A program made the position numbers and the translations under genes. Shown in pieces: positions 19,486 through 20,478 of a stretch of 64,000 nucleotides of DNA. The notes beneath the pieces were generated by a model. The model saw only the letters and a list, made by a program, of their open reading frames with translations. It searched no databases and was not told where the DNA came from. Source of the DNA: Escherichia coli (GTDB lineage Bacteria > Pseudomonadota > Gammaproteobacteria > Enterobacterales > Enterobacteriaceae); NCBI RefSeq assembly GCF_003334405.1, contig NZ_QOWM01000017.1; one strand, given 5' to 3'. How positions within the stretch are numbered: the stretch's first letter is position 1; every line of letters begins with the position of its first letter.

Positions 19486-20478
19486 ATGAGTCAGAATACG
19501 CTGAAAGTTCATGATTTAAATGAAGATGCGGAATTTGATGAGAACGGAGTTGAGGTTTTTGACGAAAAGGCCTTAGTAGAAGAGGAACCCAGTGATAACG
19601 ATTTGGCCGAAGAGGAACTGTTATCGCAGGGAGCCACACAGCGTGTGTTGGACGCGACTCAGCTTTACCTTGGTGAGATTGGTTATTCACCACTGTTAAC
19701 GGCCGAAGAAGAAGTTTATTTTGCGCGTCGCGCACTGCGTGGAGATGTCGCCTCTCGCCGCCGGATGATCGAGAGTAACTTGCGTCTGGTGGTAAAAATT
19801 GCCCGCCGTTATGGCAATCGTGGTCTGGCGTTGCTGGACCTTATCGAAGAGGGCAACCTGGGGCTGATCCGCGCGGTAGAGAAGTTTGACCCGGAACGTG
19901 GTTTCCGCTTCTCAACATACGCAACCTGGTGGATTCGCCAGACGATTGAACGGGCGATTATGAACCAAACCCGTACTATTCGTTTGCCGATTCACATCGT
20001 AAAGGAGCTGAACGTTTACCTGCGAACCGCACGTGAGTTGTCCCATAAGCTGGACCATGAACCAAGTGCGGAAGAGATCGCAGAGCAACTGGATAAGCCA
20101 GTTGATGACGTCAGCCGTATGCTTCGTCTTAACTAGCGCATTACCTCGGTAGACACCCCGCTGGGTGGTGATTCCGAAAAAGCGTTGCTGGACATCCTGG
20201 CCGATGAAAAAGAGAACGGTCCGGAAGATACCACGCAAGATGACGATATGAAGCAGAGCATCGTCAAATGGCTGTTCGAGCTGAACGCCAAACAGCGTGA
20301 AGTGCTGGCACGTCGATTCGGTTTGCTGGGGTACGAAGCGGCAACACTGGAAGATGTAGGTCGTGAAATTGGCCTCACCCGTGAACGTGTTCGCCAGATT
20401 CAGGTTGAAGGCCTGCGCCGTTTGCGTGAAATCCTGCAAACGCAGGGGCTGAATATCGAAGCGCTGTTCCGCGAGTAA
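19486..20478 (+). pseudogene. rpoS: RNA polymerase sigma-S gene interrupted by an in-frame TAG at 20134-20136 (predicted 216-aa truncated product)
   Basis: ATG at 19486 ([14 protein letters not shown]...); frame continues with sigma-70-family region 3/4 sequence after the TAG ([11 protein letters not shown]...EALFRE, stop 20476-20478); ORF track splits it as 19450..20136 and 20185..20478 in the same frame. Confidence 0.85.

Follow-up and report, generated by a model that had tools for sequence, protein, structure and literature searches.

An in-frame amber codon at position 217 of rpoS in an Escherichia coli isolate predicts a truncated sigma-S

The sigma factor sigma-S, encoded by rpoS, competes with sigma-70 for the core RNA polymerase, and its loss aids nutrient scavenging while costing the cell stress resistance (PMC3484664, PMC2700278, and PMC7527412, a review of the field). 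As a result of work described in the same three sources, rpoS null alleles are known to take over cultures kept in long-term stationary phase, in chemostats or on poor carbon sources, and the heavy documentation of this class (PMC3484664, PMC2700278, PMC7527412) bears out the view, taken in a preliminary description of the DNA studied here, that rpoS loss-of-function alleles are common. In the study of Snyder et al., RpoS was absent from only 2% of natural isolates that had been handled with care, and the mutations concerned had arisen in the laboratory (PMC3484664). Several individual alleles have been described. In the natural VTEC isolate N99-4390 the glutamate codon 243 of rpoS is changed to a stop by a G to T substitution (PMC2700278). 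Dong et al. 2009 tied the selection of such mutants to better growth on poor carbon sources, and truncations of the kind we report below were linked to loss of RpoS-dependent phenotypes (PMC2700278). A different outcome is known for the amber allele rpoS(Am33) of K-12 lineages. Codon 33 precedes the conserved regions of the protein, and restart downstream of the stop gives an N-terminally shortened, partly active sigma-S; the allele is also suppressed in supE44 strains (PMC2763269). Here we analyse an amber codon that lies much deeper in the gene.

The DNA analysed, a single stretch of 64 kb referred to as the window, carries rpoS in the gene order pcm-nlpD-rpoS-ygbN (Table 1). From the sequence and its translation, the rpoS start is the ATG at 19486-19488 on the plus strand and the normal stop is the TAA at 20476-20478. 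The list of open reading frames contains a 228-aa ORF that begins at an in-frame ATG further upstream, at 19450, and the annotation of reference genomes puts the rpoS start at the position equal to 19486. Read from there, the frame is interrupted by a TAG at 20134-20136. This is exactly codon 217, (20134-19486)/3 being 216, and is preceded by the residues ...SRMLRLN in the nucleotide context ctt aac TAG cgc att, with C as the base after the stop. No further defect is present in the frame 3' of codon 217 through to the TAA. We compared the window with E. coli H3, a human faecal isolate (NZ_CP028732.1), and across the 993 nt of rpoS observed one difference from the H3 gene (product WP_000081550.1), a T in place of G at 20134 that converts the glutamate codon GAG to TAG. 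The preliminary description had proposed an amber codon in the frame opened by ATG 19486, an intact frame beyond it to the normal stop at 20478, and a single GAG to TAG change near codon 217. The first of these holds to the base, the second is confirmed by translation, and the third can be sharpened to exactly codon 217 and to the sole rpoS difference from H3.

Table 1. Features of the rpoS locus, with positions in the window and the evidence for each
Feature	Position	Strand	Basis
rpoS (sigma-S) frame, now a pseudogene interrupted by a single stop	19486..20478	+	992/993 bases equal to strain H3; Pfam regions after repair of codon 217; structure alignment
Amber TAG in place of the ancestral GAG (Glu) at codon 217; next base C	20134..20136	+	sequence; H3 comparison; public loci with identical TAG CGC
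Part of rpoS still translated, 216 aa: region 1.2, region 2 and the helical portion of region 3	19486..20133	+	translation and Pfam
Former codons 218-330 (3.2 linker and region 4), untranslated from the rpoS start	20137..20478	+	translation and Pfam
Shine-Dalgarno AGGAG of the canonical rpoS start, unchanged	19474..19478	+	sequence; anti-SD pairing -6.5 kcal/mol
Two terminator hairpins with U-tracts directly 3' of rpoS	20491-20527 and 20536-20563	+	MFE -44.4 kcal/mol, z = -7.7 versus shuffles
ygbN, next gene	20572-21936	opposite to rpoS	ORF list; H3 comparison

The surroundings of the gene are otherwise unremarkable. The E. coli rpoS promoter and leader reside in the upstream nlpD region, which in the window matches H3 at 100% identity. 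No gene follows rpoS in its operon, and a polar effect of the premature stop on another gene could be ruled out because strong terminators follow rpoS and ygbN lies on the opposite strand. A search for a structured RNA or recoding signal around the rpoS stop matched no Rfam family anywhere in the 64-kb window.

That this locus belongs with rpoS is clear once codon 217 is repaired. The repaired protein has the domain order of RpoS, with Pfam matches to Sigma70_r1_2 (PF00140, residues 56-88), r2 (PF04542, 94-163), r3 (PF04539, 174-248) and r4 (PF04545, 262-315), and it matches the RpoS chains of PDB 5IPL and 6KJ6 along its whole length, 330/330 residues (E about 1e-210). The match of 992/993 nt to the annotated H3 gene and the position downstream of nlpD further support orthology to E. 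coli RpoS. The uninterrupted 330-aa frame is what the locus lacks. It does share the loss of an essential part of the protein, residues 217-330, with rpoS loss-of-function alleles, and an in-frame TAG with the suppressed amber alleles of rpoS. Because the frame is not intact, the locus is best regarded as an rpoS pseudogene or null allele rather than a functional member of the group 2 sigma-70 family.

The stop at codon 217 falls inside the Pfam model of region 3 (174-248). The residues lost, 217-330, take in the whole of region 4 and, before it, the latter part of region 3 with the 3.2 linker. The preliminary description had predicted a 216-aa product without region 4, the -35 recognition region; the Pfam assignments agree and take the loss further, as the 3.2 linker is also gone. 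To place the cut in three dimensions we turned to known structures. The alignment of the sigma-A crystal fragment 1KU2 to RpoS spans residues 83-204, and the fragment itself continues for about 20 residues more; structures of isolated sigma-S region 4, 6FI7 and 6IDO, span residues 244/245-330. By this alignment the 216-aa product would roughly resemble a stable N-terminal piece of sigma comprising regions 1.2 to 3.1. In holoenzymes of the sigma-70 family the 3.2 linker sits in the RNA exit channel and aids initiation, and region 4 anchors sigma on the beta-flap, reads the -35 region and contacts activators. As a normal holoenzyme could not form without the 3.2 linker and region 4, we infer that E217am is a null or near-null allele. 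It would more likely be null than merely blind to the -35 element, because the cut also removes the 3.2 linker.

We then considered the ancestral state of codon 217 and the age of the change, using 5,426 RefSeq complete E. coli genomes, a set that does not include the source genome of the window. The rpoS sequence of the window is identical in none of these, the best matches being 995/996. A 61-mer centred on the TAG has an exact match in 1 complete genome, and 5,406 of the 5,407 matching genomes differ from it by one base, so that GAG is the ancestral and TAG the derived state. From 9186 to 44999 the window is 99.989% identical to H3, with 4 mismatches in 35,814 bp. These are a synonymous change in cysC, a synonymous change in hycC, one intergenic difference and the rpoS nonsense codon. 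Position 18229, in the pcm-nlpD intergenic region 55 nt upstream of the long nlpD ORF and thus within the nlpD promoter region, is T in the window and G in H3. The T is common to five other compared loci, including the close relative N18-04097 and a contig from the sequencing run SRR3989531, and H3 alone has the G. The odd base thus belongs to H3, and a second regulatory change affecting the rpoS operon of the window could be ruled out.

Approximately 62 genes of the window were compared with H3 and N18-04097, and an internal stop was observed in rpoS only. All are full-length except rpoS and cas3, and nearly all are 100% identical. With about 60 neighbouring genes full-length and nearly all identical to one or other relative, general gene decay, a Shigella-like genome and a poor assembly could be ruled out as the source of the stop. 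A mutator background due to mutS was also ruled out; this gene, ~7 kb from rpoS, is 100% identical to the intact H3 copy. Given only four mismatches to H3 in 35,814 bp and the integrity of the other genes, the rpoS lesion is both recent and isolated. Codon 33 of rpoS is GAG in the window, the usual state outside K-12 (PMC2700278), which places the host strain, as judged from this codon, outside the K-12 laboratory lineage. Elsewhere in the window, P270Q in mltB (61462-62547) and G736V in hypF (49613-51865) are two non-synonymous differences from H3 outside rpoS, and synonymous differences are found at recA Y66 and srlA S106.

How readily would a stop arise in this gene by chance? There are 2,979 possible single-base changes in rpoS, of which 116 make a stop (3.9%), and G>T changes form the largest class of these (45/116), the gene being rich in glutamate. 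The chance of an rpoS nonsense hit among 2-4 substitutions in 35.8 kb is about 0.002-0.004. So low a probability fits selection for loss of rpoS, not a random hit in a random gene.

The only complete genome sharing the 61-mer with the TAG is that of O157:H7 strain ATCC 43889 (NZ_CP015853.1, A8714_RS23345). Here the identical GAG to TAG change at codon 217 gives an identical 216-aa product, and in the PGAP annotation rpoS is a pseudogene flagged "internal stop". The two genomes differ, however, in lineage, the other being O157:H7, and at three synonymous positions within rpoS; downstream of the gene ATCC 43889 carries genes for a MarR-family protein and a hydroxyarylic acid decarboxylase, whereas in the window ygbN follows directly. 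On account of these synonymous differences and the different downstream region, the mutation in ATCC 43889 is an independent event. A literature search found no published link of rpoS to codon 217, E217 or G649T, and in the papers it returned that mention ATCC 43889 the rpoS lesion of this strain is not discussed.

The allele is also frequent in draft data. Within the public assembly collection, 173 index blocks contain the exact 216-aa product, and all ten public loci that were fetched with this product have TAG CGC at codon 217. The ten loci represent nine rpoS haplotypes and at least five downstream gene arrangements. A single ancestral E217am spread by descent or recombination could be ruled out, because there are nine haplotypes, synonymous differences lie as near to the TAG as about 50-110 nt, and the downstream contexts number at least five. 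Nor is codon 217 a mutational hot spot. The six other GAG to TAG truncations examined were present at similar levels, in 181 (E174*), 75 (E184*), 183 (E197*), 71 (E200*), 169 (E243*) and 204 (E265*) index blocks, although all these counts mix natural and laboratory-acquired rpoS events. For population genetics, the result is that 7/7 tested rpoS GAG to TAG sites occur in public data, in 71-204 index blocks each. Nonsense alleles of rpoS have been sampled heavily, and among them E217am is an average one; it is not new, being already present in a culture-collection strain and in many assemblies. In the close relative N18-04097 (NZ_CP047277.1, F3052_RS04990) rpoS is annotated as frameshifted (19987-20978 of the compared segment). 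Here rpoS was lost independently, in a genomic neighbourhood closely related to that of the window, and by a frameshift in contrast to the nonsense substitution of the window.

The window comes from a draft assembly. Its positions 1-3876 match the start of contig QOWM01000017.1 (68,709 bp) of GCA_003334405.1 with 0 mismatches and the same numbering, and it very probably represents the initial 64 kb of this contig. The caveat of the preliminary description, that the stop could be a sequencing or assembly error, was a reasonable one. In this reading the T at 20134 would be an artefact of sequencing, assembly or culture heterogeneity and the isolate would really carry GAG. We consider this very unlikely. 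The Logan assembly of SRA run SRR3989531 contains a 35-kb contig identical to the window over the 6,651 bp compared, TAG included, and the contig is recorded in two samples, so that an independent assembly of SRA reads repeats the stop. This excludes an artefact of the assembler and is compatible with heterogeneity in the library or culture, as SRR3989531 may itself underlie the draft assembly of the window. The change is a substitution and not a homopolymer indel. The consensus quality is also high, since H3 and the window are distinguished by just three more sites in the surrounding 35.8 kb, none of them disruptive, and the gene that was hit is the one most often knocked out in stored cultures. 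The presence of the contig in two samples could reflect one isolate sequenced again or a circulating clone; no mention of SRR3989531 in published papers was found in the literature search.

If the stop is genuine, the remaining question is whether it leaves any sigma-S activity. E217am might not be a clean null, either because readthrough or a suppressor gives a little full-length sigma-S or because restart at TTG 20185 gives a two-piece sigma-S, and the strain would then carry a tuned-down or two-piece sigma-S rather than none; we regard this as improbable. Incomplete termination, through near-cognate readthrough at UAG-C or through a suppressor tRNA, a caveat that the preliminary description reasonably raised, would produce a reduced amount of full-length protein and a turned-down allele, similar to rpoS(Am33) in supE44 K-12. 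The stop is indeed a TAG followed by C, and Poole, Brown and Tate reportedly showed in 1995 that UAG terminates translation least well in E. coli when the next base is C. Given this context, a trace of full-length RpoS is possible. The 3' part of rpoS carries no second lesion either, although this is expected anyway for a recent mutation. Amber alleles of rpoS with residual activity do have precedents in K-12, through supE44 and a secondary initiation site (PMC2763269). Set against these points, no tRNA genes were found within the 64-kb window, nor is there any other pointer to a suppressor, and the annotation of ATCC 43889 counts its copy of the allele as a pseudogene. In wild-type E. coli, UAG is read through at a low basal level, typically well below 1%. 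A special context at codon 217 is also hard to reconcile with the similar frequency of TAG truncations at six other codons, which fits simple knockouts, and incomplete termination is in our view improbable too. It is less probable still that the truncated gene contributes by itself, with the 216-aa fragment attached to core polymerase by region 2 and acting as a weak or dominant-negative sigma, or with restart at TTG 20185 supplying a 97-aa fragment, made up of the 3.2 linker and region 4, to a two-part sigma. The fragment does match a sigma piece that folds stably in crystals of the 1KU2 type, but it retains both Lys173 and the N-terminus, the recognition elements for RssB/ClpXP, and so should still be degraded. 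TTG 20185 is the only in-frame restart candidate. It lies 49 nt after the stop, opens a 97-aa ORF (20185-20478, plus strand) that gene callers list separately, and has a Shine-Dalgarno-like GGTGGTGAT 12 nt upstream, with a pairing energy of -6.2 kcal/mol compared to -6.5 at the true rpoS site. Stop-dependent restart is, at least in the account cited within PMC2763269, documented for rpoS(Am33) and provides a precedent. Nevertheless, a TTG start with a 12-nt spacer is a poor geometry, the candidate appears weak, and separate sigma-S halves are not known to reassemble. Truncations at many other positions in rpoS are equally common, which suggests that selection is simply for loss.

Taken as a whole, the best explanation is a genuine and recent spontaneous GAG to TAG knockout of rpoS in an otherwise ordinary lineage, to which we assign a probability of roughly 0.88. 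A spontaneous G:C to T:A transversion would have turned Glu217 into an amber codon, recently, in a commensal-type E. coli lineage near H3. Translation from the normal rpoS start would end after residue 216, leaving a fragment that keeps regions 1.2 and 2, the domain that binds core and recognises the -10 element, as well as the helical portion of region 3. Without the 3.2 linker and region 4 this fragment should be unable to make a normal sigma-S holoenzyme, and the general stress regulon would be off or nearly off. Loss of sigma-S would free core polymerase for sigma-70 and improve nutrient scavenging, and this trade-off between scavenging and stress resistance explains the sweeps of such mutants in stabs and chemostats, in stationary-phase cultures and where the carbon source is poor. 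Both the null phenotype and the selective cause of E217am are points that we infer. As to where the mutation was acquired, we lean modestly towards isolation or laboratory storage rather than the host or environment, because so few carefully handled isolates lack RpoS and those losses were laboratory-derived (PMC3484664).

A type I-E CRISPR-Cas system lies near the start of the window. Its cas3 gene (259-2376, plus strand) has an in-frame 582-bp deletion and encodes 705 aa instead of 899. The junction lies at about 2246-2251, with 6-9 bp of microhomology, and the deletion removes the region of helicase motif VI (QRAGRLQRH), suggesting that Cas3 of the window is probably inactive. The junction is present in 0/5,426 complete E. 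coli genomes, so it could not be used as a route to a closer complete genome; the exact 705-aa product was found on 9 public contigs. The rest of the type I-E system (2474-9336) is intact, and casA to cas2 (2474-8235) is 100% identical to N18-04097. The CRISPR array at 8332-9336 contains 17 repeats of GTGTTCCCCGCGCCAGCGGGGATAAACCG and 16 spacers. At the same locus H3 has a cas deletion with IS421 adjoining. Across 1-64000 no family reached the Rfam gathering score, CRISPR repeats included.

The value of the observation is practical rather than conceptual, the mutation class being textbook. The isolate is probably stress-sensitive, and those who work with it should reckon with an rpoS-null phenotype, including poor resistance to acid, peroxide and osmotic stress in stationary phase. 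HPII catalase should be absent, glycogen scarce and curli/RDAR weak, and growth should be better when the carbon source is poor. The stock may also differ by now from the wild isolate as first obtained. In automatic gene calls the 97-aa tail ORF of rpoS is listed as a separate gene with a Sigma70_r4 match. This call is probably an annotation artefact, and the locus would be better marked as a pseudogene than as two genes of 216 and 97 aa.

Among alleles described in the literature, E217am is close to the mutation in N99-4390 and to the Suc++ rpoS mutants that Dong et al. 2009 obtained (PMC2700278). In N99-4390 a G to T change likewise creates a stop in a similar part of the gene and truncates RpoS; the stop is at codon 243 and the phenotypes were measured, whereas the allele in the window has its stop at codon 217 and is known from sequence alone. 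With rpoS(Am33) it shares an amber codon inside rpoS, one that recurs in laboratory strains of the K-12 lineages (PMC2700278, PMC2763269). The consequences are predicted to differ, as the window allele has a wild-type GAG at codon 33 and its stop at 217 costs the essential C-terminal part of the protein. A final parallel is with RpoS deleted for region 4, also a C-terminally truncated sigma-S without the -35-recognition domain. Gowrishankar, Yamamoto, Subbarayan and Ishihama are said to have observed in 2003 (J Bacteriol 185:2673) partial activity of RpoS lacking region 4 on some promoters and templates, and that protein reportedly retained region 3 and the 3.2 linker. The product predicted for the window is shorter and would be without the 3.2 linker as well.
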